A stretch of DNA of 28,457 nucleotides from positions 1-28,457 of IMG/VR virus record IMGVR_UViG_2698536484_000010. One strand, 5' to 3'. Below, one piece after another: positions 1 through 15,849 of this stretch. The position numbers and the translations under genes are program-made. This DNA comes from a virus. Its lineage: Duplodnaviria > Heunggongvirae > Uroviricota > Caudoviricetes. Under the pieces are notes generated by a model, which saw only the letters and a list, made by a program, of their open reading frames with translations, searched no databases and had not been told where the DNA came from. Within the stretch, counting starts at the first letter, position 1. Every line of letters starts with the position of its first letter.

Positions 1-267
1 CCGCTGGGTGCAGTGATTATGTCGATCGTTATGGCTGGTTTGCGCATCGCCTATTTTGGCGGTGGTGGTGGCTGGAAGCGAAAAACGCTCGAGATTTTGC
101 TATGTGGCGCTCTGACGCTGACCTTTGCATCCGCTCTTGAATATGTCGGATGGCCTAAATCGCTTTCTGTTGCCATTGGTGGTGGCGTGGGGCTGATCGG
201 TGTCGATGCTATTCGTGGGGCTGCAATGCGAGTAATCGGTAACAAATTTGGTAGCTCGAAGGAGTAA
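1..267 (+). CDS. Holin, lambda S-like (5' end probably outside window)
   Basis: Reading frame is open from base 1. C-terminal pattern SVAIGGGVGLIGVDAIRGAAMRVIGNKFG resembles lambda S C-terminus ([25 protein letters not shown], recalled from memory). Hydrophobic TM-like stretches; sits immediately upstream of the endolysin. Confidence 0.6.
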   Translation, partial: PLGAVIMSIVMAGLRIAYFGGGGGWKRKTLEILLCGALTLTFASALEYVGWPKSLSVAIGGGVGLIGVDAIRGAAMRVIGNKFGSSKE

Positions 268-270
268 TTT

Positions 271-747
271 ATGCAGGCACTAAATTCCCAGCGTAAAGCT
301 TTCCTGGATATGGTGGCATGGTCAGAAGGAACGGATAACGGGCGACAACCGACACGTAACCACGGTTATGATGTTATTGTTGGTGGCGAACTGTTCACTG
401 ATTACTCCGATCACCCTCGCAAACTTGTCACGCTAAACCCCAAACTCAAATCAACAGCCGCCGGACGTTACCAGCTTCTTTCACGCTGGTGGGATGCTTA
501 CCGTAAACAGCTTGGCCTGAAAGATTTTTCTCCAGAAAGCCAGGACGCTGTAGCTCTGCAGCAGATTAAAGAGCGTGGTGCTTTACCGATGATTGACCGC
601 GGCAGTATTCGTCAGGCAATCGACCGTTGCAGCAATATCTGGGCGTCGTTACCTGGTGCAGGTTACGGTCAGTATGAACATAAAATCGGTGACCTGATTG
701 CCCGATTTAAAGAGGCTGGTGGGGTGGTAAATGAAGTTAAGCTATAA
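271..747 (+). CDS. R: Endolysin, lambda R-like lytic transglycosylase
   Basis: 158 aa; near-identical by eye to lambda R (NSQRKAFLDM.AWSEGTDNGRQ.TRNHGYDVIVGGELFTDYSDHPRKLVTLNPKLKSTAAGRYQLLSRWWDAYRKQLGLKDFSP). Confidence 0.9.
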   Translation: MQALNSQRKAFLDMVAWSEGTDNGRQPTRNHGYDVIVGGELFTDYSDHPRKLVTLNPKLKSTAAGRYQLLSRWWDAYRKQLGLKDFSPESQDAVALQQIKERGALPMIDRGSIRQAIDRCSNIWASLPGAGYGQYEHKIGDLIARFKEAGGVVNEVKL

Positions 748-1123
748 GCTGGTTATTGCTGCTTTCCTTTTTACTGTCGTCAGTTCTTTCATCTGGTCAG
801 CCAACTACTACTACAGCAAATATCAGCACGAAAAGAAACGTGCTGATGAGGCTGTACAAAATGCCAAATCGGCAACTGCCATTACCAATAACGTCCTGCA
901 ATCACTGCAAATCGTCAATACAGTACTGGAGGCTAACCAGCATGCAAAACAGCAGAGCACACTGGAGTCACAGAGAACCCAGGAAGATATCAAAATGGCT
1001 GTTGCGGATGATGATTGTGCTTCACGTGCTGTGCCTGCTGCCGCTGCTGACCGGTTGCGGAAGTACGCGGACAGTTTACGTGCCAGTTCCAGCGGTGCCA
1101 TTACCGGCGAATCTGACCACTGA
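731..1123 (+). CDS. Rz: Rz-like inner-membrane spanin
   Basis: 130 aa with N-terminal TM segment then coiled-coil-like periplasmic domain; overlaps the 3' end of the endolysin gene; contains embedded lipoprotein ORF in another frame. Confidence 0.75.
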   Translation: MKLSYKLVIAAFLFTVVSSFIWSANYYYSKYQHEKKRADEAVQNAKSATAITNNVLQSLQIVNTVLEANQHAKQQSTLESQRTQEDIKMAVADDDCASRAVPAAAADRLRKYADSLRASSSGAITGESDH

Positions 1124-1265
1124 AACACTGCAACCAGCTATTCCTGAGCCGCTGACCTATGGCGGCAGTTTGGATTTGAATGTCAGCTTGTTGTTGGCGC
1201 TGGGGCAGTGTAACAGAGATAAAGCGGACATCCGAACGATTGAGCAATCGCGAACCTCGCAATAG
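1008..1265 (+). CDS. Rz1: Rz1-like outer-membrane lipoprotein spanin, embedded in Rz in the +1 frame
   Basis: ATG-ATG at 1008/1011 gives MMIVLHVLCLLPLLTGCGS with lipobox LLTGC, followed by a Pro-rich segment; fully inside and extending past Rz. Confidence 0.7.
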   Translation: MMIVLHVLCLLPLLTGCGSTRTVYVPVPAVPLPANLTTETLQPAIPEPLTYGGSLDLNVSLLLALGQCNRDKADIRTIEQSRTSQ

Positions 1266-1276
1266 CGAGGTTTTTT
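1255..1276 (+). terminator. Rho-independent terminator after the lysis cassette
   Basis: cctcgc-aata-gcgagg hairpin followed by TTTTTT; overlaps the Rz1 stop codon. Confidence 0.6.
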
Positions 1277-1288
1277 AACGACAGAGGT

Positions 1289-1483
1289 ATGACAGTGGTT
1301 CTTACAGCTAAGCAGTTTGAAGACCTTGCATCCTTCGCGAAGGAAGATAGCCAGCCTCAATACACCATCGCTACCGGAATCATCCCAGAATTCGAAGATG
1401 ATTGTGAGTTTATCCCCGTTTATGCCTGGCTCATCGCTTATTTAGAGTTACTGAAGCACGGTGTATTGCAACTCGACCACTAG
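1289..1483 (+). CDS. Hypothetical small acidic protein (64 aa)
   Basis: ORF only; SD-like agagg very close to the ATG; no recognisable motif. Confidence 0.3.
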   Translation: MTVVLTAKQFEDLASFAKEDSQPQYTIATGIIPEFEDDCEFIPVYAWLIAYLELLKHGVLQLDH

Positions 1484-1500
1484 AGGCATTACGCCAAGTA

Positions 1501-1529
1501 TTCATCAAGTGCCTAGTTTAATGTTAAAT
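1501..1529 (+). promoter_or_regulatory. Candidate sigma70 promoter for the moron gene (TTCATC, 17-nt spacer, TTAAAT)
   Basis: AT-rich intergenic sequence; hexamers read by eye; inverted repeat ttccct/agggaa at 1532-1553 overlaps the RBS. Confidence 0.25.
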
Positions 1530-1557
1530 TATTCCCTCATTCATAAAAGGGAATGTT

Positions 1558-1959
1558 ATGAAAATAGATCACGAGTATTTGAAAGGTCTTTTGGACGCTT
1601 TCGAGGCGTCTGAAGAGCCGCATACTGATATAAAGCAGCTGCAGCTGGCTGGGTATGACTACAGCACCGATGAATTTTTATTCCATATGCGTTTATTGGC
1701 TGATCGTCAACTAATTGCTAGAACAGACGGCAAGTATGGGTTTGGTTTCTCTGAGGCTGCTGATGGAGGATCATGGTTCGTTATACCGTTACGCTTAACT
1801 TCAAGCGGTCATGACTTCCTTGAAGCTCTCAGGAATAAAGAGGTTTGGAATTCTCTCAAGACCGGCTTTAAAGATGCAAGCATTGGAACATTAGTTGACG
1901 TTTCAAGGCGTTTGCTGGATGGTTATATTCAGAAAAAAATTGACGACTTAATTGGCTAA
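1558..1959 (+). CDS. Hypothetical 133-aa protein, moron (function unknown)
   Basis: AT-rich relative to flanks; own candidate promoter, good RBS (aaaaggg, then ATG) and a strong terminator directly downstream; lies between lysis and packaging modules. Confidence 0.6.
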   Translation: MKIDHEYLKGLLDAFEASEEPHTDIKQLQLAGYDYSTDEFLFHMRLLADRQLIARTDGKYGFGFSEAADGGSWFVIPLRLTSSGHDFLEALRNKEVWNSLKTGFKDASIGTLVDVSRRLLDGYIQKKIDDLIG

Positions 1960-1977
1960 TATTTTATATAACCATCA

Positions 1978-2001
1978 GCCCCGCAATCGCGGGGCTTTTT
2001 T
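1978..2001 (+). terminator. Rho-independent terminator after the moron
   Basis: gccccgc-aatc-gcggggc hairpin followed by TTTTTT. Confidence 0.65.
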
Positions 2002-2093
2002 ATTGCCATTACGATGGCAGATACATTGCTATGGCGTAACAGGATTTCAACTATGAACCCAACAGAAGCAGCTACATCACCGAAGGACGGATA

Positions 2094-2444
2094 ATGCCAC
2101 CACGCACACCAAAAGCCTGCCGTGTTCGCGGCTGCCGCCATACCACTACTGACCCGTCAGGCTACTGCGAAAGCCACAAAGGCGAAGGCTGGAAGCAATA
2201 CAAACCTGGACAATCCCGTCACCAGCGCGGTTATGGTTCGAAATGGGACGTCATCCGTGAACGTGTGCTGAAGCGTGACAAAGGCCTGTGTCAGTCATGT
2301 CTGCATGCTGGTGTGGTGCGTGAGGCGAAAACCGTTGACCACATCGTTCCTAAAGCGCATGGCGGCACTGATGCCGACAGTAATCTGCAGAGTCTGTGCT
2401 GGCCCTGCCATAAGGCGAAGACGGCCCGTGAACGGTTAAAGTGA
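2094..2444 (+). CDS. HNH endonuclease (terminase-associated type)
   Basis: 116 aa; Cys-rich N-terminus (CRVRGCRH...CESH), HNH core DHIVPKAHGG...N...LCWPCH; directly upstream of the terminase genes as in HK97-like phages. Confidence 0.85.
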   Translation: MPPRTPKACRVRGCRHTTTDPSGYCESHKGEGWKQYKPGQSRHQRGYGSKWDVIRERVLKRDKGLCQSCLHAGVVREAKTVDHIVPKAHGGTDADSNLQSLCWPCHKAKTARERLK

Positions 2445-2465
2445 TAATAATTCTCAACTGTCTGA

Positions 2466-2529
2466 GGGGAGGGGCGGGTCAAATCCCTGCGGCCTGACGT
2501 CTTCCGGACTGCCCGCCCCATCGTTTTTT
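2466..2529 (+). other. GC-rich inverted repeat (ggggcggg ... cccgcccc) plus T7 run; candidate cos region or terminator
   Basis: Perfect 8-bp inverted repeat separated by 33 nt, followed by TTTTTTT, in the HNH-terS intergenic region where HK97-like phages carry cos. Confidence 0.3.
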
Positions 2530-2569
2530 TATACCCGCGAAAAATGAAATTTAACCAGGAGTGCCGCAT

Positions 2570-3064
2570 ATGGCTGGAACGGCGGGGCGTTCCGGGCGTC
2601 GCCCCAAGCCAACGGCGCGCAAGGCGCTGGCCGGAAACCCCGGCAAGCGAGCCCTGAACAAAGATGAACCTGTTTTTACGCCCATCAAAGGTGTTGAGCC
2701 ACCGGAGTGGTTCGCAGAAGAAGATCTCCCTCTCGCCACGATCATGTGGCAACTGACAACCAAAGAACTCTGCGGTCAGGGCCTGCTGTGCGTGACTGAC
2801 CTGGCGGTACTTGAGCGGTGGTGCGTGGCCTATGAGTTCTGGCGACGTGCCGTGAAAAATATTGCCAGCCAGGGCAACACCATCACCGGCGCAATGGGCG
2901 GCAGGGTCAAAAACCCGGAGCTGACCGCCAAGAAAGAACAGGAGTCCGAGATGAGCAGCACGGGGGCAATGCTCGGACTCGACCCCAGCAGCCGCCAGCG
3001 TCTGATAGGCCTGGCGGGGCAGAAGAAAGCCACTAACCCGTTTCTGAAAATCATCGAATCATGA
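2570..3064 (+). CDS. Terminase small subunit
   Basis: About 164 aa, basic N-terminus; ATG at 2570 has better SD spacing (ccagga) than GTG at 2561; stop overlaps terL start (ATGA). Confidence 0.8.
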
Positions 3065-4794
3065 GCCGGAAATCTTACCCCAACGTAAATGCTGCCAATC
3101 AGTATGCCCGTGATGTCGTGCGGGGAAAGATTGTGGCCTGCCAGTTTGTGATTCAGGCCTGCCAGCGCCATCTTGATGACCTGATGGCGGAAAAAAGTAA
3201 GTCGTTTCGTTACCGCTTCGACAAGGACCTGGCTGAACGGGCCGCCAAATTTATTCAGCTGTTGCCGCACACCAAGGGTGAGTGGGCATTTAAGAGGATG
3301 CCCATCACGCTGGAGCCGTGGCAGCTCTTTGTGATCTGCTGCGCGTTTGGCTGGGTCAATAAAGGCTCCCGGCTGCGCCGCTTCCGTGAGGTGTATACCG
3401 AAATCCCCCGTAAGAACGGCAAATCGGCAATCTCTGCCGGTGTCGCCCTGTATTGTTTTGCCTGTGATAACGAGTTTGGCGCGGAAGTGTATTCCGGTGC
3501 CACGACAGAGAAACAGGCGTGGGAAGTCTTTCGCCCGGCGCGACTGATGTGTAAACGCACACCCATGCTGACGGAAGCGTTCGGGATTGAGGTTAACGCC
3601 TCAAACATGAACCGTCCGGAGGATGGCGCGCGGTTTGAACCGCTGATCGGTAACCCCGGTGATGGATCATCACCCCACTGTGCGGTGGTGGATGAATATC
3701 ACGAGCACGCCACCGATGCGCTTTACACCACGATGCTTACCGGGATGGGGGCGCGACGTCAGCCACTGATGTGGGCCATTACTACTGCCGGGTACAACAT
3801 TGAGGGGCCGTGCTACGACAAACGGCGGGAAGTTATCGAGATGCTCAACGGTTCGGTACCCAACGATGAACTGTTCGGGATCATCTATACCGTTGACGAA
3901 GGTGACGACTGGACCAACCCACAGGTGCTGGAAAAAGCCAACCCGAATATCGGGGTGTCGGTTTACCGTGAGTTTTTGTTAAGTCAGCAACAGCGTGCGA
4001 AAAATAACGCCCGTCTGGCAAACGTCTTTAAAACAAAACACCTCAATATCTGGGTGTCGGCGCGTTCGGCGTATTTCAACCTGGTGAGCTGGCAGAGCTG
4101 CGAGGATAAATCACTGACTCTTGAGCAATTCGAGGGGCAGCCGTGCATTCTGGCCTTTGACCTGGCGCGTAAACTGGATATGAACAGCATGGCGCGACTT
4201 TATACCCGCGAGATTGACGGTAAAACGCATTACTACAGTGTGGCCCCGCGTTTCTGGGTACCGTATGACACGGTGTACAGCGTCGAGAAAAATGAAGATC
4301 GCCGGACAGCCGAACGCTTTCAGAAATGGGTGGAAATGGGCGTCCTGACCGTTACCGATGGTGCAGAGGTGGATTATCGCTACATCCTCGAGGAGGCCAA
4401 AGCGGCGAACAAAATCAGCCCGGTCAGTGAGTCACCCATCGACCCCTTCGGGGCGACCGGGTTGTCACATGACCTTGCTGATGAAGACCTGAACCCCATC
4501 ACTATCATTCAGAACTACACCAACATGTCCGACCCGATGAAAGAGCTGGAAGCAGCGATTGAATCGGGACGTTTTCATCATGACGGCAATCCCATCATGA
4601 CCTGGTGTATCGGCAACGTGGTCGGCAAAAACATGCCGGGTAACGATGATGTGGTGAAACCCGTCAAAGAGCAGGCTGAAAACAAAATTGACGGTGCAGT
4701 TGCGCTGATTATGGCGGTTGGCAGAGCCATGCTGTACGAGAAAGAAGACACGCTGTCTGATCACATTGAGTCCTACGGGATCCGCTCGCTTTAA
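3061..4794 (+). CDS. Terminase large subunit
   Basis: 577 aa; Walker A-like PRKNGKS, acidic ATPase motif VVDEYHEH, C-terminal nuclease-like region; typical size and position. Confidence 0.9.
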
Positions 4795-4805
4795 CTGAGG
4801 TAATT

Positions 4806-4988
4806 ATGATCATGCTGATTCTCGCGCCTCTGGTGGGCGTGCTGGGGGTGCTTTTGCTGGCGTATGGTGCCTGGCTGATTTATCCCCCGGCGGGGTTTGT
4901 TGTTGCCGGGGCGTTATGCCTGTTCTGGTCGTGGCTGGTGGCGCGATATCTCGACCGTACACAGATGTCTGTTGGTGGAGGTAAATAG
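4806..4988 (+). CDS. Small hydrophobic membrane protein (60 aa)
   Basis: Two predicted TM helices; between terL and portal; stop overlaps portal GTG start. Confidence 0.4.
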
Positions 4989-6229
4989 TGTTCTTTTCGG
5001 GATTATTTCAACGAAAAAGTGACGCACCGGTGACCACGCCAGCAGAGCTGGCGGATGCTATCGGGCTGTCATACGACACCTATACCGGAAAGCAGATCAG
5101 CAGCCAGAGGGCCATGCGACTGACGGCGGTTTTTTCCTGCGTCAGGGTGCTGGCGGAGTCGGTCGGGATGTTGCCCTGCAACCTGTATCACCTGAACGGC
5201 AGCCTGAAGCAGAGAGCCACTGGCGAACGTCTGCATAAGCTGATCTCCACGCATCCCAATGGCTATATGACGCCGCAGGAGTTCTGGGAGCTGGTGGTCA
5301 CCTGTCTGTGCCTGCGGGGAAACTTTTACGCCTACAAAGTGAAAGCATTTGGCGAAGTGGCTGAACTGCTGCCCGTCGATCCCGGCTGTGTGGTACCGAA
5401 GCTTAACAGTAGCTGGGAGCCGGTCTATCAGATCACATTCCCGGATGGCTCCTCGGATGTACTGAGCCAGGAGGATATCTGGCATGTGCGCACGCTGACG
5501 CTGGACGGACTGGTGGGGCTGAATCCCATCGCCTATGCCCGCGAGGCAATATCGCTGGCGGCAGCGACCGAAGAGCACGGGGCCAGACTGTTCAGCAATG
5601 GCGCGGTGACGTCGGGTGTGTTGCGTACAGAGCAGACGCTGTCAGATCAGGCTTATGAGCGCCTGAAGAAAGATTTTGAGGAGCGTCACACCGGGCTTGG
5701 CAATGCTCACCGCCCGATGATCCTTGAGATGGGGCTGGACTGGAAGTCGATGGCGCTGAACGCCGAGGACAGCCAGTTCCTGGAAACCCGCAAGTTTCAG
5801 CTTGAAGAAATCTGTCGTCTGTTCCGGGTACCGTTGCACATGGTGCAGAACACCGATCGCGCCACCTTCAACAATATCGAAGAACTGGGGCTCGGATTTA
5901 TCAACTATTCACTGGTGCCGTATCTGACCCGCATCGAACAGCGGATCAACACCGGACTGGTACGAAAAAGTAAGCAGGGCGTTTATTACGCCAAATTTAA
6001 CGCCGGGGCGTTACTGCGCGGGGATATGAAGTCCCGTTTTGAAGCCTACGCCACCGGGATTAACTGGGGAATTTACTCTCCCAATGACTGCCGCGACCTG
6101 GAAGATATGAATCCGCGTCCCGGTGGTGATGTCTATCTCACACCGATGAACATGACCACGAAACCCTCCGATGGCAGTAAGGCCGGTAAGCAGAAGGATA
6201 ACGCCAATGCAGACGAAACAACGTCTTGA
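4988..6229 (+). CDS. Portal protein (HK97 family)
   Basis: 413 aa; GTG start with GGAGG 7 nt upstream; position after terL and before the prohead protease; HK97-type portal-like composition. Confidence 0.85.
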   Translation: MFFSGLFQRKSDAPVTTPAELADAIGLSYDTYTGKQISSQRAMRLTAVFSCVRVLAESVGMLPCNLYHLNGSLKQRATGERLHKLISTHPNGYMTPQEFWELVVTCLCLRGNFYAYKVKAFGEVAELLPVDPGCVVPKLNSSWEPVYQITFPDGSSDVLSQEDIWHVRTLTLDGLVGLNPIAYAREAISLAAATEEHGARLFSNGAVTSGVLRTEQTLSDQAYERLKKDFEERHTGLGNAHRPMILEMGLDWKSMALNAEDSQFLETRKFQLEEICRLFRVPLHMVQNTDRATFNNIEELGLGFINYSLVPYLTRIEQRINTGLVRKSKQGVYYAKFNAGALLRGDMKSRFEAYATGINWGIYSPNDCRDLEDMNPRPGGDVYLTPMNMTTKPSDGSKAGKQKDNANADETTS

Positions 6230-6857
6230 TGTACCGCTGAGTCTGAAATCTGTCAGTGACTCCGGTGAGTTTGAAGGGTATGGCTCCGTCTTTGGTGTAA
6301 AGGACAGCCACGATGATGTGGTGATGTCCGGGGCATTTGCTGCTTCCCTGCGGGCGTGGAGTGACAGAAAAGCGTTACCTGCGCTGCTCTGGCAGCACCG
6401 CATGGATGAACCCATCGGTGTTTACACCGAAATGAAGGAAGACGATGTCGGGCTTTACGTCAGGGGACGGTTGCTTATTGATGATGATCCCCTGGCAAAA
6501 CGCGCACATGCACACATGAAGGCCGGTTCGTTAACCGGCCTTTCTATTGGGTACGTCCTGAAAGACTGGGAATACGACCGGACGAAAGAAGCCTTTTTGC
6601 TGAAAGAAATCGACCTCTGGGAAGTCAGTCTGGTGACGTTTCCGTCTAACGACGAGGCGCGGATCAGCGACGTCAAGAACGCGCTGGCCCGCGGGGAAAT
6701 CCCTGAACAGAAAAAAATCGAAAGAGTCCTGCGTGATGTCGGACTCTCCCGTACCCAGGCCAAAGCATTCATGGCCGGGGGCTATGGCGCACTGTCCCTG
6801 CGCGATGCTGAGGATGTGGGCTCTGCACTGAATGCACTGAAAAATCTGAACTTCTAA
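6207..6857 (+). CDS. Prohead protease (HK97 family)
   Basis: ATG at 6207 with aagga SD (the ORF-track start at 6171 overlaps the portal); between portal and capsid genes. Confidence 0.8.
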   Translation: MQTKQRLDVPLSLKSVSDSGEFEGYGSVFGVKDSHDDVVMSGAFAASLRAWSDRKALPALLWQHRMDEPIGVYTEMKEDDVGLYVRGRLLIDDDPLAKRAHAHMKAGSLTGLSIGYVLKDWEYDRTKEAFLLKEIDLWEVSLVTFPSNDEARISDVKNALARGEIPEQKKIERVLRDVGLSRTQAKAFMAGGYGALSLRDAEDVGSALNALKNLNF

Positions 6858-6871
6858 TCAGGAGAAATACG

Positions 6872-8077
6872 ATGGCGGTTGATATTAAAGATGTGGAACA
6901 GGTCGCGCAGGAGCTGCAGCAGAAGTTTGACGACTTCAAGGCAAAGAACGACAAGCGCGTGGATGCGATTGAGCAGGAAAAAGGCAAACTTGCCGGGCAG
7001 GTGGAAACCCTGAACGGGAAACTCAGCGAGCTGGAAAATCTCAAAAGCGACCTTGAAAAAGAGCTGCTTGAGCTGAAACGTCCGGCAGGTGGTGTGCAAA
7101 ATAAACTGGCCACTGAGCATAAAGAAGCGTTTGTGGGCTTTCTGCGTAAAGGCCGTGAAGACGGTCTGCGCGATCTGGAGCGCAAGGCATTACAGGTGGG
7201 CACCGATGAAGACGGTGGCTATGCCGTGCCGGAAGCACTGGATCGCAACATTCTCACCCTGCTGAAAGATGAAGTGGTGATGCGCCAGGAAGCCACGGTG
7301 ATCACTGTTGGCGGTTCCGACTACAAAAAACTGGTGAATCTGGGCGGCACGGCTTCCGGATGGGTGGGCGAGACTGACGCGCGCTCCCAGACTGCCACCT
7401 CAAAACTGGGGCTGATTGAACCTTTCATGGGGGAAATCTACGGTAACCCGCAGGCCACTCAGAAAATGCTGGATGATGCCTTCTTCAACGTGGAGGCCTG
7501 GATCAACAGCGAGCTGGCGACCGAATTTGCTGAACAGGAAGAAATTGCCTTTACCACCGGTGATGGCACCAAGAAGCCAAAAGGGTTCCTGGCGTATGAA
7601 TCCACCGATGAAACCGATAAGGTTCGTGCGTTCGGTAAACTTCAGCATATTGTATCCGGTGAAGCGACGACGGTGACCGCAGACGCCATTATCAAACTGA
7701 TTTACACGCTGCGTAAGGCACACCGCACTGGCGCGAAGTTCATGATGAACAACAACAGCCTGTTTGCCATCCGTCTGTTGAAAGACACCGAGGGTAACTA
7801 TCTGTGGCGTCCGGGGCTGGAGCTGGGGCAACCGTCCTCTCTGGCGGGTTACGGTATCGCTGAAAACGAACAGATGCCGGATATCGCCGCTGATGCGAAA
7901 GCCATTGCATTTGGTAACTTCAAACGGGGTTACACCATCGTTGACCGTATCGGCACCCGCATTCTGCGTGACCCGTACACCAATAAACCGTTTGTCGGTT
8001 TTTATACCACCAAGCGCACCGGCGGGATGCTGGTCGATTCGCAGGCCATCAAACTGCTGAAGATTGCAGCGGCGTAA
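6872..8077 (+). CDS. Major capsid protein (HK97 fold) with N-terminal coiled-coil delta domain
   Basis: 401 aa; strong SD aggag; N-terminal approx 100 aa highly charged and coiled-coil-like; remainder typical of HK97-like capsid proteins. Confidence 0.9.
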   Translation: MAVDIKDVEQVAQELQQKFDDFKAKNDKRVDAIEQEKGKLAGQVETLNGKLSELENLKSDLEKELLELKRPAGGVQNKLATEHKEAFVGFLRKGREDGLRDLERKALQVGTDEDGGYAVPEALDRNILTLLKDEVVMRQEATVITVGGSDYKKLVNLGGTASGWVGETDARSQTATSKLGLIEPFMGEIYGNPQATQKMLDDAFFNVEAWINSELATEFAEQEEIAFTTGDGTKKPKGFLAYESTDETDKVRAFGKLQHIVSGEATTVTADAIIKLIYTLRKAHRTGAKFMMNNNSLFAIRLLKDTEGNYLWRPGLELGQPSSLAGYGIAENEQMPDIAADAKAIAFGNFKRGYTIVDRIGTRILRDPYTNKPFVGFYTTKRTGGMLVDSQAIKLLKIAAA

Positions 8078-14472: not shown

Positions 14473-15849
14473 ATGGATTTATCCTCATTTCCCACCCGAC
14501 CTTCATTACTTTCGTCGTCTTCAGGCTGGCGTGACAGGCTTCAGGACGCGTCATTTCGCGGCGTGCCGTTTAAGGTTGAAGAAGAAAGTGCGGGAACCGG
14601 TCGCCGTGTGGAAACACATGAATACCCGAACCGCGACAAGCCCTATACCGAAGATCTGGGAAAAGTCACTTTCCGCCCGTCCATCACAGCTTATGTGGTG
14701 GGAGATGACTGCTTTGACCAGCGCGATCGCCTGATTGAAGCGCTGAATAAACCCGGTCCCGGCACGCTTGTCCACCCGACATATGGTGAGCTGAAAGTCT
14801 GTGTTGACGGGGAAGTTCGGGTCAGCACATCGAAAAGTGAAGGGCGTATTGTCCGCTTTGACCTGAAGTTTGTCGAAGCAGGAGAACTCTCTTACCCCAC
14901 ATCAGGTGCGGCGACGGCGCAGACGCTGATGTCATCCTGTTCTGCACTGGATGACTGCATTAGTGACAGCTTCAGCGGTTTCAGTATCGATGGTGTGGCG
15001 GATTTCGTGCAGAACGACGTTATCGGTAATGCCAGCATAATGCTGGGGTATGTTTCTGATGCGATGAAAGTGGTGGATTCTGCCGTATCGGATGCCGCCA
15101 GGCTGTTGCAGGGGGATATCTCGGTACTTCTGCCGCCGCCATCGTCAGGCAAAAATTTCGTTGAGCAGGTGCAGAAAATGTGGCGTACCGGGAAACGCCT
15201 TTATGGTAACGCCAGCGACCTGGTTACCATGATCAAAACGCTTTCCGGTGTCAGCCTCGGCAGCGATCTGCAACCGCGCGGCGTCTGGAAAACGGACAGT
15301 AAAACCACCGCCACGGCGACGCAGCAGCGTAACGTGGTTGCCAGCACCCTTCGTACGACCGCAATCAGCGAAGTGGCGTATGCCGTCACCCGATTGCCTG
15401 CGCCAACAACTTCCGCGGTGATGCAGAATTCCGCAGTGGGGCAGGCAACAACACCCGCGCAGAGCACTGGCTGGCCTTCCGTCACGCATCCGGCACTGAA
15501 CAATGCACCGGCGGTGAAAAACACGGTTGACCTGCCGACGTGGGAAGAACTGACTGACATTCGCGACACACTGAATACGGCAATTGATAAGGAGTTGTCC
15601 CGTACAACCAGTGATGCGCTGTTTCTGGCGCTGCGCCGGGTGAAAGCAGATCTGAATGCGGATATCAACACGCGCCTTGAACAGTCTGCACGGATCATTC
15701 AGCGCACACCGGATGAGGTTTTACCCGCGCTGGTGCTGGCGGCTACCTGGTTTGATAACGCGGCGCGTGACGCGGACATTATCCGGCGTAATGCCATTAC
15801 GCATCCCGGCTTTGTGCCGGTGATCCCTCTGAAGGTGCCAGTGCAATGA
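14473..15849 (+). CDS. DNA circularisation-like tail protein (Mu gpN-like)
   Basis: 458 aa; position after the tape measure in Mu-type tail clusters. Confidence 0.65.
   Translation: MDLSSFPTRPSLLSSSSGWRDRLQDASFRGVPFKVEEESAGTGRRVETHEYPNRDKPYTEDLGKVTFRPSITAYVVGDDCFDQRDRLIEALNKPGPGTLVHPTYGELKVCVDGEVRVSTSKSEGRIVRFDLKFVEAGELSYPTSGAATAQTLMSSCSALDDCISDSFSGFSIDGVADFVQNDVIGNASIMLGYVSDAMKVVDSAVSDAARLLQGDISVLLPPPSSGKNFVEQVQKMWRTGKRLYGNASDLVTMIKTLSGVSLGSDLQPRGVWKTDSKTTATATQQRNVVASTLRTTAISEVAYAVTRLPAPTTSAVMQNSAVGQATTPAQSTGWPSVTHPALNNAPAVKNTVDLPTWEELTDIRDTLNTAIDKELSRTTSDALFLALRRVKADLNADINTRLEQSARIIQRTPDEVLPALVLAATWFDNAARDADIIRRNAITHPGFVPVIPLKVPVQ

Follow-up and report, generated by a model that had tools for sequence, protein, structure and literature searches.

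The DNA examined here, called the window, is a stretch of 28,457 nucleotides from an E. coli prophage. Annotation around the locus describes an HK97-type head, a P27-family terminase, and a Mu-like sheathed tail. Between the lysis genes and the packaging genes lies a short segment with two small genes, orf64 and a gene of the DUF2513 family, along with several predicted hairpins. The features of this region, in window coordinates, are the following.

13-267: holin.
271-747: lysozyme.
731-1123: Rz; Rz1 ends at 1265.
1253-1277, plus strand: intrinsic terminator of Rz1, AACCTCGC-aata-GCGAGGTT followed by T6; it overlaps the Rz1 stop codon and forms the left edge of the cargo segment.
1289-1483, plus strand: orf64, 64 aa, of the N15 gp56 / mEp390 gp53 family.
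1482-1529, plus strand: degenerate copy of a repeated hairpin, recognized by a covariance model and covering the region first read as a candidate promoter.
1531-1554, plus strand: leader hairpin, in which an anti-Shine-Dalgarno sequence (UUCCCU) pairs with the Shine-Dalgarno region (AGGGAA).
1558-1959, plus strand: gene of the DUF2513 protein, 133 aa, a winged helix-turn-helix followed by three C-terminal helices.
1977-2002, plus strand: intrinsic terminator of the DUF2513 cassette, AGCCCCGC-aatc-GCGGGGCT followed by T6.
2004-2036, plus strand: second, two-tier hairpin in the spacer before the HNH gene (dG -12.8, z -3.05).
2094-2444, plus strand: HNH endonuclease, first gene of the conserved packaging module and right edge of the cargo segment.
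2561-3064: small terminase subunit, TerS.
3061-4794: large terminase subunit, TerL.

The contents of the segment are rare among genomes that carry its surroundings. Window positions 1200-2100 are found at 100% identity in 4 complete E. coli chromosomes. The insert of orf64 and the DUF2513 gene occurs in 10 of 5426 E. coli genomes, against 1248 of 5426 complete genomes for the HNH-TerS module (window 2060-3300), and the locus is missing from more than 99% of the E. coli prophages that have the same packaging module. In most of the 1248 genomes, homology begins at query positions 33-35, which correspond to window 2092-2094, the start codon of the HNH gene. At the other edge, 6 of the 10 insert-bearing genomes become similar at query position 56 (window 1255), within the Rz1 terminator, and have a different lysis region upstream. 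Alternative contents of the slot in prophages with the same packaging module are a GrlR-family regulator, a 74-aa hypothetical protein, or iss/bor on the opposite strand. Given that the insert is present in so few of the genomes that hold the packaging module, and that other cargo takes its place in the slot, the locus is moron-like cargo. A megablast search of isolated phages with the locus as query gave no match.

Base composition agrees with the first-pass annotation, which had called the DNA AT-rich and had proposed comparing conservation and GC content with related phages. Across 1400-2100 the GC fraction is 0.385-0.46, compared with 0.52-0.625 in the packaging genes, so that it falls across the same segment that is rare among the E. 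coli genomes. Three of the marks of a moron are thus observed: presence in some relatives at the slot, a factor-independent terminator downstream, and deviant GC. In its anatomy and its status as cargo, window 1253-2093 is almost certainly a rare, horizontally exchanged accessory segment in a variable slot between lysis and packaging. The orf64-DUF2513 locus is ordinary prophage cargo in the lambdoid moron slot, carrying an uncharacterised protein family. The earlier proposal of a moron locus therefore stands as regards accessory cargo in a moron slot; its other part, a promoter belonging to the locus, is taken up below and is not supported.

Two intrinsic terminators, both anticipated from the first reading of the sequence, enclose the genes of the segment. 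The hairpin after Rz1 (1253-1272, followed by T6) has an RNA dG of -14.0 and a z of -4.05, and 0 of 200 shuffles are as good. A simple terminator scan overlooked it because AA/TT pairs consume part of the T run. The hairpin after the DUF2513 gene (1977-1996, followed by T6) has 8 pairs, 7 of them G-C, with a dG of -17.2 and a z of -4.03. An intrinsic terminator is kept 3′ of the gene in 18 of 25 close relatives, among them nearly all of the enterobacterial prophage copies.

The 64-aa reading frame had been described as weak. It is real, and the description does not suit it, since orf64 matches PHROG 9518 (phrog_9518) with an E value of 3.7e-32 and also matches N15 gp56 and mEp390 gp53. The family has 20 invariant columns among 13 sequences; from its consensus the protein of the window deviates by G47W and S54L, both at nearly invariant sites. 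With a pI of 4.2 and a net charge of -8 the protein is very acidic, and its predicted structure is of low confidence (pLDDT 47.5). GAGG at 1284-1287 stands only 1 nt before ATG 1289, so that translation may truly begin at GTG 1295. N15 gp56 and mEp390 gp53 both lie directly after lysis genes, the former right behind the stem-loop of the Rz terminator. This constant position suggests that orf64 is a late gene linked to the lysis module. Its start is 12-18 nt past the T-run of the Rz1 terminator, a gap too short for a promoter, and orf64 must therefore be transcribed by read-through, as in N15. Its product would be made only when transcription passes the terminator, which would amount to Q-antiterminated late transcription.

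The 133-aa reading frame at 1558-1959, for which a gene had been proposed, is a real and conserved one. The protein matches Pfam DUF2513 (PF10711) at 49.6 bits, against a cut-off of 29.6, over profile positions 1-98 of 100, and it matches PHROG 585 (phrog_585) with an E value of 3.7e-31. DUF2513 is the only Pfam family that it matches even at E ≤ 1, with neither MarR nor PadR among the matches. Neither this protein nor orf64 has a match in PADLOC (PADLOC-DB v2, E ≤ 1) or NCBIfam, and a PDB sequence search gave only chance matches. A literature search found no useful paper on DUF2513, DUF2560, YjcQ, or PF10711.

The AlphaFold model of the 133-aa protein has a pLDDT of 96.4 and a pTM of 0.88. 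In the model, a winged helix consisting of H5-16, H25-30, H38-49, and a four-strand wing is followed by helices 82-92, 94-103, and 109-132. The predicted structure adds three helices to a MarR/PadR-like winged helix, and the winged-helix-like fold guessed from the sequence at the outset agrees with it. A Foldseek search of the PDB with the model found no full-length match (E ≥ 0.013, TM about 0.4). The closest solved folds are all DNA-binding transcription regulators, and for this reason a role as a classical dimeric MarR/PadR-type DNA-binding regulator of phage or host genes, with the position among cargo incidental, is plausible despite the acidic surface of the protein. The features of the family nevertheless make such a role unlikely. 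Besides the missing profile membership, the protein has a pI of 5.1 and a net charge of -6, and the family as a whole is similarly acidic, with a median pI of 5.2 and a net charge of -6. The recognition helix has a net charge of -1 and the wing a net charge of 0, and H43 is the sole invariant polar residue of the recognition helix. The best-conserved residues outside the helix-turn-helix are R79, T81, G84, H85, R92, E95, W97, K101, K105, and D106; apart from G84 they make up the top conserved surface, which therefore lies off the DNA-reading head. Across 66 genomic loci of DUF2513 genes, the neighbourhoods hold no conserved partner gene, no conserved adjacent target gene, and no divergent operator arrangement. 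Recurring 'clusters' of neighbours around these loci were rejected as artefacts of antisense reading frames.

The family is large and mostly consists of single-domain proteins. A word-based search found 91 relatives; searching with the full profile raised this to 2096 clusters (50% identity), nearly all of them stand-alone proteins of ~130-145 aa (about 135), from Proteobacteria, Acidobacteriota, Nitrospirota, and other phyla. The genes orf64 and DUF2513 are found independently of one another: orf64 homologues occur without a DUF2513 gene in mEp390, N15, and one Klebsiella phage, and Klebsiella, Citrobacter, and other prophages have a DUF2513 homologue but lack orf64. These latter homologues occupy the same slot, frequently behind a DUF2560 gene, and the terminases beside them are of three unrelated types (HNH/P27, lambda Nu1/A, and Terminase_2/6). 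Elsewhere, the DUF2513 gene of phage Chlobot lies in the early-left operon near xis/int, and that of Thiothrix follows a Type ISP restriction enzyme in a non-phage context.

These settings bear on the view that both proteins are helpers of late functions, such as lysis timing or cos/terminase action, and not cargo. In favour of such helpers, both genes have the orientation of the late genes and lie between lysis and packaging; the lysis cassette always precedes the orf64 homologues, and DUF2513 is often directly upstream of HNH or TerS. However, nearly all E. coli prophages with this packaging module lack the locus, the two genes are found apart from each other, and DUF2513 genes are found beside unrelated terminases, in an early operon, and in chromosomal contexts outside phages, all of which makes helpers of this kind very improbable. 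A role as packaging accessories in particular was rejected, given the three unrelated terminase types and the non-phage contexts.

A further indication of function comes from longer relatives. P0110 (278 aa) joins a full-length DUF2513 to a CAP12/Pycsar-type TIR domain (E 7.7e-21), P0165 is a long relative with TIR_2 (E 3.2e-19), and P0192 is another with a faint match to DUF4062. Fusions of DUF2513 with TIR are confirmed for 7 clusters (90% identity) within a very large TIR family of varied N-terminal domains, and these few fusion clusters are the only link of DUF2513 to immunity. Because the protein is acidic, has no conserved basic residues in its recognition helix, has no obligate partner, and is rarely fused to TIR, DUF2513 is tentatively taken to be a stand-alone recognition module, for protein or nucleic acid, in conflict between phage and host or between phages. 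It would serve as a sensor or adaptor rather than as a classical repressor, and this is the weakest step of the proposed mechanism. The TIR fusions together with the cargo position make DUF2513 a reasonable candidate for a phage-conflict factor. A function for DUF2513, if found, would annotate about 2100 unannotated protein clusters.

Upstream of the DUF2513 gene, the inverted repeat ATTCCCT (1531-1537) / AGGGAAT (1548-1554) spans the ribosome-binding site. The first-pass annotation had seen a strong site here and had suggested an operator or a translational control hairpin. The site itself (AAGGGA, about 6 nt upstream of the ATG) is of moderate strength and lies inside the hairpin. The repeat is real; taken alone, the hairpin of the window folds no better than shuffled sequences (dG -7.9, z -0.9 to -1.7), and in this respect the suggestion stands at chance level. 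The idea of a control hairpin is backed by comparison: pairing of an anti-Shine-Dalgarno with the Shine-Dalgarno sequence is part of the minimum-energy fold in 11 of 12 distinct DUF2513 leaders, whose sequences differ. The pairings are CCCU/AGGG, CCCCU/AGGGG, CUCCC/GGGAG, CCUC/GGGG, and CCUCAC/GUGGGG, with energies of -3.4 to -11.5 kcal/mol. The leader hairpin probably throttles translation of DUF2513.

The degenerate hairpin copy at 1482-1529 belongs to an element discovered by comparing the regions upstream of DUF2513 genes in divergent prophages. The element is 40-47 nt long, with the consensus GGCATTACAGCAGGCATTCACTGAGTGCCTGTGATAATGC; the consensus of the sense-strand hairpin can also be given as GGCAUUACAGCAGGCAUUCACUGAGUGCCUGUGAUAAUGC. 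Profile and pattern searches of about 300 phage loci from enterobacterial temperate phages found at least 138 distinct copies. By BLAST the element occurs in 44 isolated-phage records, including phi80, phiP27, ST64B, cdtI, mEp390, and ZF40, and it is present in 410 of 5426 E. coli genomes with 1-4 copies each. Its carriers include many phages of E. coli, Klebsiella, Salmonella, and Pectobacterium. The phi80 copy comes right after rha and the phiP27 copy right before an HNH gene. The palindromic element was also considered as an operator bound by DUF2513; this was rejected, as only 3 of the 44 phage records encode a DUF2513 homologue.

An alignment of 101 distinct copies gives a hairpin of 18 pairs in which 83.8% of cells are paired, compared with 30-49% in slid controls. 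Covariation is evident at 10 pairs in which both partners have changed (90 cells), and no shuffle out of 500 reaches the observed values. Wobble pairs show a strand bias, with 227 G-U against 40 A-C, which places the hairpin in the sense strand, with RNA as its simplest form. The consensus folds with a dG of -24.7 kcal/mol and a z of -6.4. In some variants the 2x2 internal loop is closed to give a perfect 19-bp stem of -31 kcal/mol. The copy in the window is recognized by covariance model R1 at 37.4 bits (E 7e-8); 4 of its 16 pairs are non-canonical, its fold has a dG of -7.5 kcal/mol and a z of -1.2, and, being degenerate, it may no longer be functional. The hairpin at 2004-2036 was considered as a diverged copy and rejected, as the covariance model gives no match to it. 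A covariance search of Rfam found no family for the consensus copy, and for the window it returned only sub-threshold matches driven by terminators. A literature search with the core sequences of the hairpin found no paper.

The element has a regular place between genes. It begins 0-1 nt past a stop codon in 78 of 162 distinct copies, and the distance from the element to the next start codon has a median of 29 nt. The reading frames downstream (132 distinct, median 88 aa) fall into 74 PHROG families; among these 132 are DUF2513 (15-18), DUF2560 (12), HNH (7-9), and TerS (4-5), and others encode BamE-like lipoproteins, DUF551, a Pol III theta homologue, and a Lar-like protein. Within a single cargo region, other prophages carry 2-4 copies, with one before each small gene. 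In a four-way alignment the element lies exactly at mosaic junctions. The window and mEp390 are homologous across orf64 and the element and diverge immediately after it, whereas the window and the Citrobacter/Klebsiella loci are unrelated upstream and homologous from the 5′ edge of the element.

This placement would suit several roles: RNase III or RNase E processing, mRNA stabilisation, attenuation, or a linker for recombination. The element is probably both an intercistronic signal for processing or stability and a recombination linker. The conserved, self-contained DUF2513 cassette consists, in order, of the element (a worn copy here), a leader that sequesters the Shine-Dalgarno sequence, the 133-aa reading frame, and an intrinsic terminator.

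How the cassette is transcribed depends on whether it has a promoter. A scan of positions 1-4000 for sigma-70-like promoters found 0 above threshold, where 3.2 are expected by chance, and the best candidate read by hand, TTCATC-18 nt-TAAATT, matches at 7 of 12 positions. The promoter that the first reading had assigned to the gene is thus without a consensus match, and its candidate region is the copy of the repeated hairpin, which elsewhere precedes HNH and TerS. The 3′ arm of the element holds a -10-like GATAAT, as TGnGATAAT in the main subfamily. The TG tracks base-pairing and is not conserved independently, and the element has no -35 at 16-19 nt from the GATAAT. Just downstream of the element, CTAAATTA is kept in the DUF2513-linked copies and not in other copies, and the hairpin does not account for it. 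A weak promoter active in the lysogen may lie in or near the element. Given that the sense-strand hairpin also stands before late genes that are essential and can do without a lysogenic promoter, the DUF2513 cassette is probably transcribed mainly from upstream by late read-through. The element would then be part of the late polycistronic mRNA, with the cassette read from upstream and the leader hairpin damping its translation.

A moron in the strict sense would behave differently. DUF2513 would have a weak promoter of its own (TTCAYT-18 nt-TARATT or the GATAAT -10), placed within the element or immediately behind it, would be expressed in the repressed prophage and ended by its own terminator, and would benefit the lysogen, for example by exclusion or defence. 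Several observations are in keeping with such an arrangement: the gene lies in AT-rich DNA between two good terminators, of which the downstream one is conserved; CTAAATTA follows the element in the DUF2513-linked copies and not in others; and at several loci (L025, L030, and L009) the element comes directly after an intrinsic terminator. The TIR fusions tie the domain to immunity, and the cassettes of T4-type phages known as PeSLs overlap promoter and stem-loop (PMC2839356). The empty consensus scan, the 7 of 12 matches of the window candidate with its 18-nt spacer, a putative extended -10 whose TG follows base-pairing, and the same element before HNH and TerS late genes weigh on the other side, as does the absence of a PADLOC match, and a strict moron is accordingly rather unlikely, if less so than the classical regulator considered above.

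The best overall explanation is that the locus is an exchanged cargo segment, transcribed by late read-through, that encodes a recognition module related to conflict; the probability of this reading as a whole is put at roughly 0.55. A broader and tentative proposal concerns the hairpin. The element may represent an undescribed class of intercistronic RNA that orders the post-lysis region as exchangeable [hairpin - small gene] cassettes, a lambdoid counterpart of PeSL that would join a processing or stability signal to a recombination linker, with DUF2513 as one such cassette whose recognition domain is shared with TIR effectors. Such a hairpin offers a testable mechanism for the shuffling of accessory genes among lambdoid phages and for their expression from the late transcript.

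The moron concept stems from Juhala, Hendrix, and colleagues, with lambda bor and lom and HK97 gp15 as examples. Like the lambdoid morons, the present locus is extra to close relatives that lack it, lies at the lysis/packaging junction as lambda bor and iss do, deviates in base composition, and has its own intrinsic terminator. Unlike them, it is in the orientation of the late operon and has an RNA-level hairpin upstream; no credible sigma-70 promoter was found, and its expression in the lysogen is putative. The DUF2513 protein shares with MarR and PadR regulators the winged helix-turn-helix fold of its model, but it differs from them in profile membership, in its acidic surface, in a conserved patch outside the DNA-reading head, and in the Foldseek TM of about 0.4. 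With the TIR immune effectors (CAP12-PCTIR_TIR, PF10137; TIR_2) it has in common that a DUF2513 module, in full length or as its N-terminal part, forms the N-terminal domain in P0110 and 6 related clusters and in P0165. The protein of the window, in contrast, has no effector domain, and no TIR gene adjoins it.

Known intercistronic hairpins include the REP elements and the RNase III processing hairpins such as the R sites of T7. The repeated element resembles these as an imperfect hairpin of ~40 nt that directly follows a stop codon within a polycistronic transcript and is built from a lower stem, a 2x2 internal loop, and an upper stem. It differs from them in having no sequence similarity and in being phage-specific (410 of 5426 E. 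coli genomes, 1-4 copies each).

The promoter-early stem-loops (PeSLs) of T4-type phages are mobile regulatory cassettes with consensus sigma-70 -35 and -10 boxes, whose activity as promoters and as terminators has been demonstrated (Arbiol et al. 2010, PMC2839356). The repeated hairpin element appears to be undescribed and to be the closest lambdoid analogue of these cassettes. Both are short repeated motifs between a stop codon and the next Shine-Dalgarno sequence or start codon; both precede small ORFans in a hyperplastic region; and both form, at the edges of exchanged modules, a stable stem-loop that contains G-T pairs (PMC2839356). The element differs in that it has no -35 at a workable spacing and no U-tract, and in that it belongs to the late regions of temperate lambdoid phages. 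It is also much more conserved in sequence than PeSL.

The post-lysis region of many enterobacterial temperate phages carries a repeated hairpin element of 40-47 nt, lying on the sense strand between cistrons. Covariation in the element is strong and is accompanied by a G-U strand bias, and the sites of the element are also the mosaic junctions. Rfam holds no family for it, and a literature search with its sequence found no paper.

Copies of the hairpin element
1482-1529, window
5923-5970, prophage locus L003
2498-2545, locus L312 (phi80)
2499-2546, locus L314 (phiP27)
2496-2543, locus L313 (ST64B)
4195-4242, locus L014 (mEp390)

DUF2513 is the winged-helix protein of the window. Among Klebsiella and E. 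coli prophages, the gene that most often neighbours the DUF2513 gene on its upstream side encodes DUF2560 (81 aa), and this gene has its own copy of the hairpin element in front.

DUF2560 genes upstream of DUF2513
5680-5925, locus L003
5685-5930, locus L019
8498-8710, locus L002

In the window, the 64-aa ORF of the N15 gp56 family (1289-1483) carries two changes, G47W and S54L, at positions where the family consensus is nearly invariant. Because its ATG is only 1 nt away from a GAGG motif, the real start, judged from the sequence, may be GTG 1295.

DUF2513 also occurs in other genomic settings. In a second lineage (phage Chlobot, L011, and loci L038 and L047), the gene is in the early-left operon near xis/int, and a perfect palindrome, GTGACATGTCAC, is located upstream of it, immediately 5' of the SD (about 3975-4000 in L011; also in L038 and L047). 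This regulatory arrangement differs from that of the late-region cassettes. In Thiothrix nivea (L015, region 2773-7731), a Type ISP/MmeI-like restriction-modification enzyme of 1065 aa is encoded 30 nt upstream of a DUF2513 homologue. Two unknown ORFs, of 143 and 290 aa, come after the homologue, and IS1595 copies flank it; with such neighbours, the locus has the look of a defence island. As an N-terminal module, DUF2513 is joined to TIR domains, either PF10137 (CAP12/Pycsar-type) or TIR_2, in metagenomic proteins P0110, P0251-P0255, P0259, and P0165. P0192 has a faint DUF4062 match.

The prophage of the window, in E. coli DLI.6n (L001), has a second cargo slot outside the window, upstream of the holin and on the opposite strand. 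Here, the stretch from the Q antiterminator to the holin contains the genes for an ATP-dependent nuclease and a DNA cytosine methyltransferase (4628-7462 of L001), and the slot is probably defence-related.

Two further sequences of the window are hairpin-like. At 15771-15798 (minus strand), within a tail-region ORF, GGCATTACG...GATAATG resembles the outer stem of the element with the inner stem absent, and the covariance model scores it at 13.3 bits (E 0.39); the resemblance is probably due to chance. In the spacer from the DUF2513 terminator to the HNH gene is a second two-tier hairpin (2004-2036; outer stem GCCAT..ATGGC, dG -12.8, z -3.05), which the element's covariance model does not detect. 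At the corresponding place, phiP27 has a canonical hairpin element.
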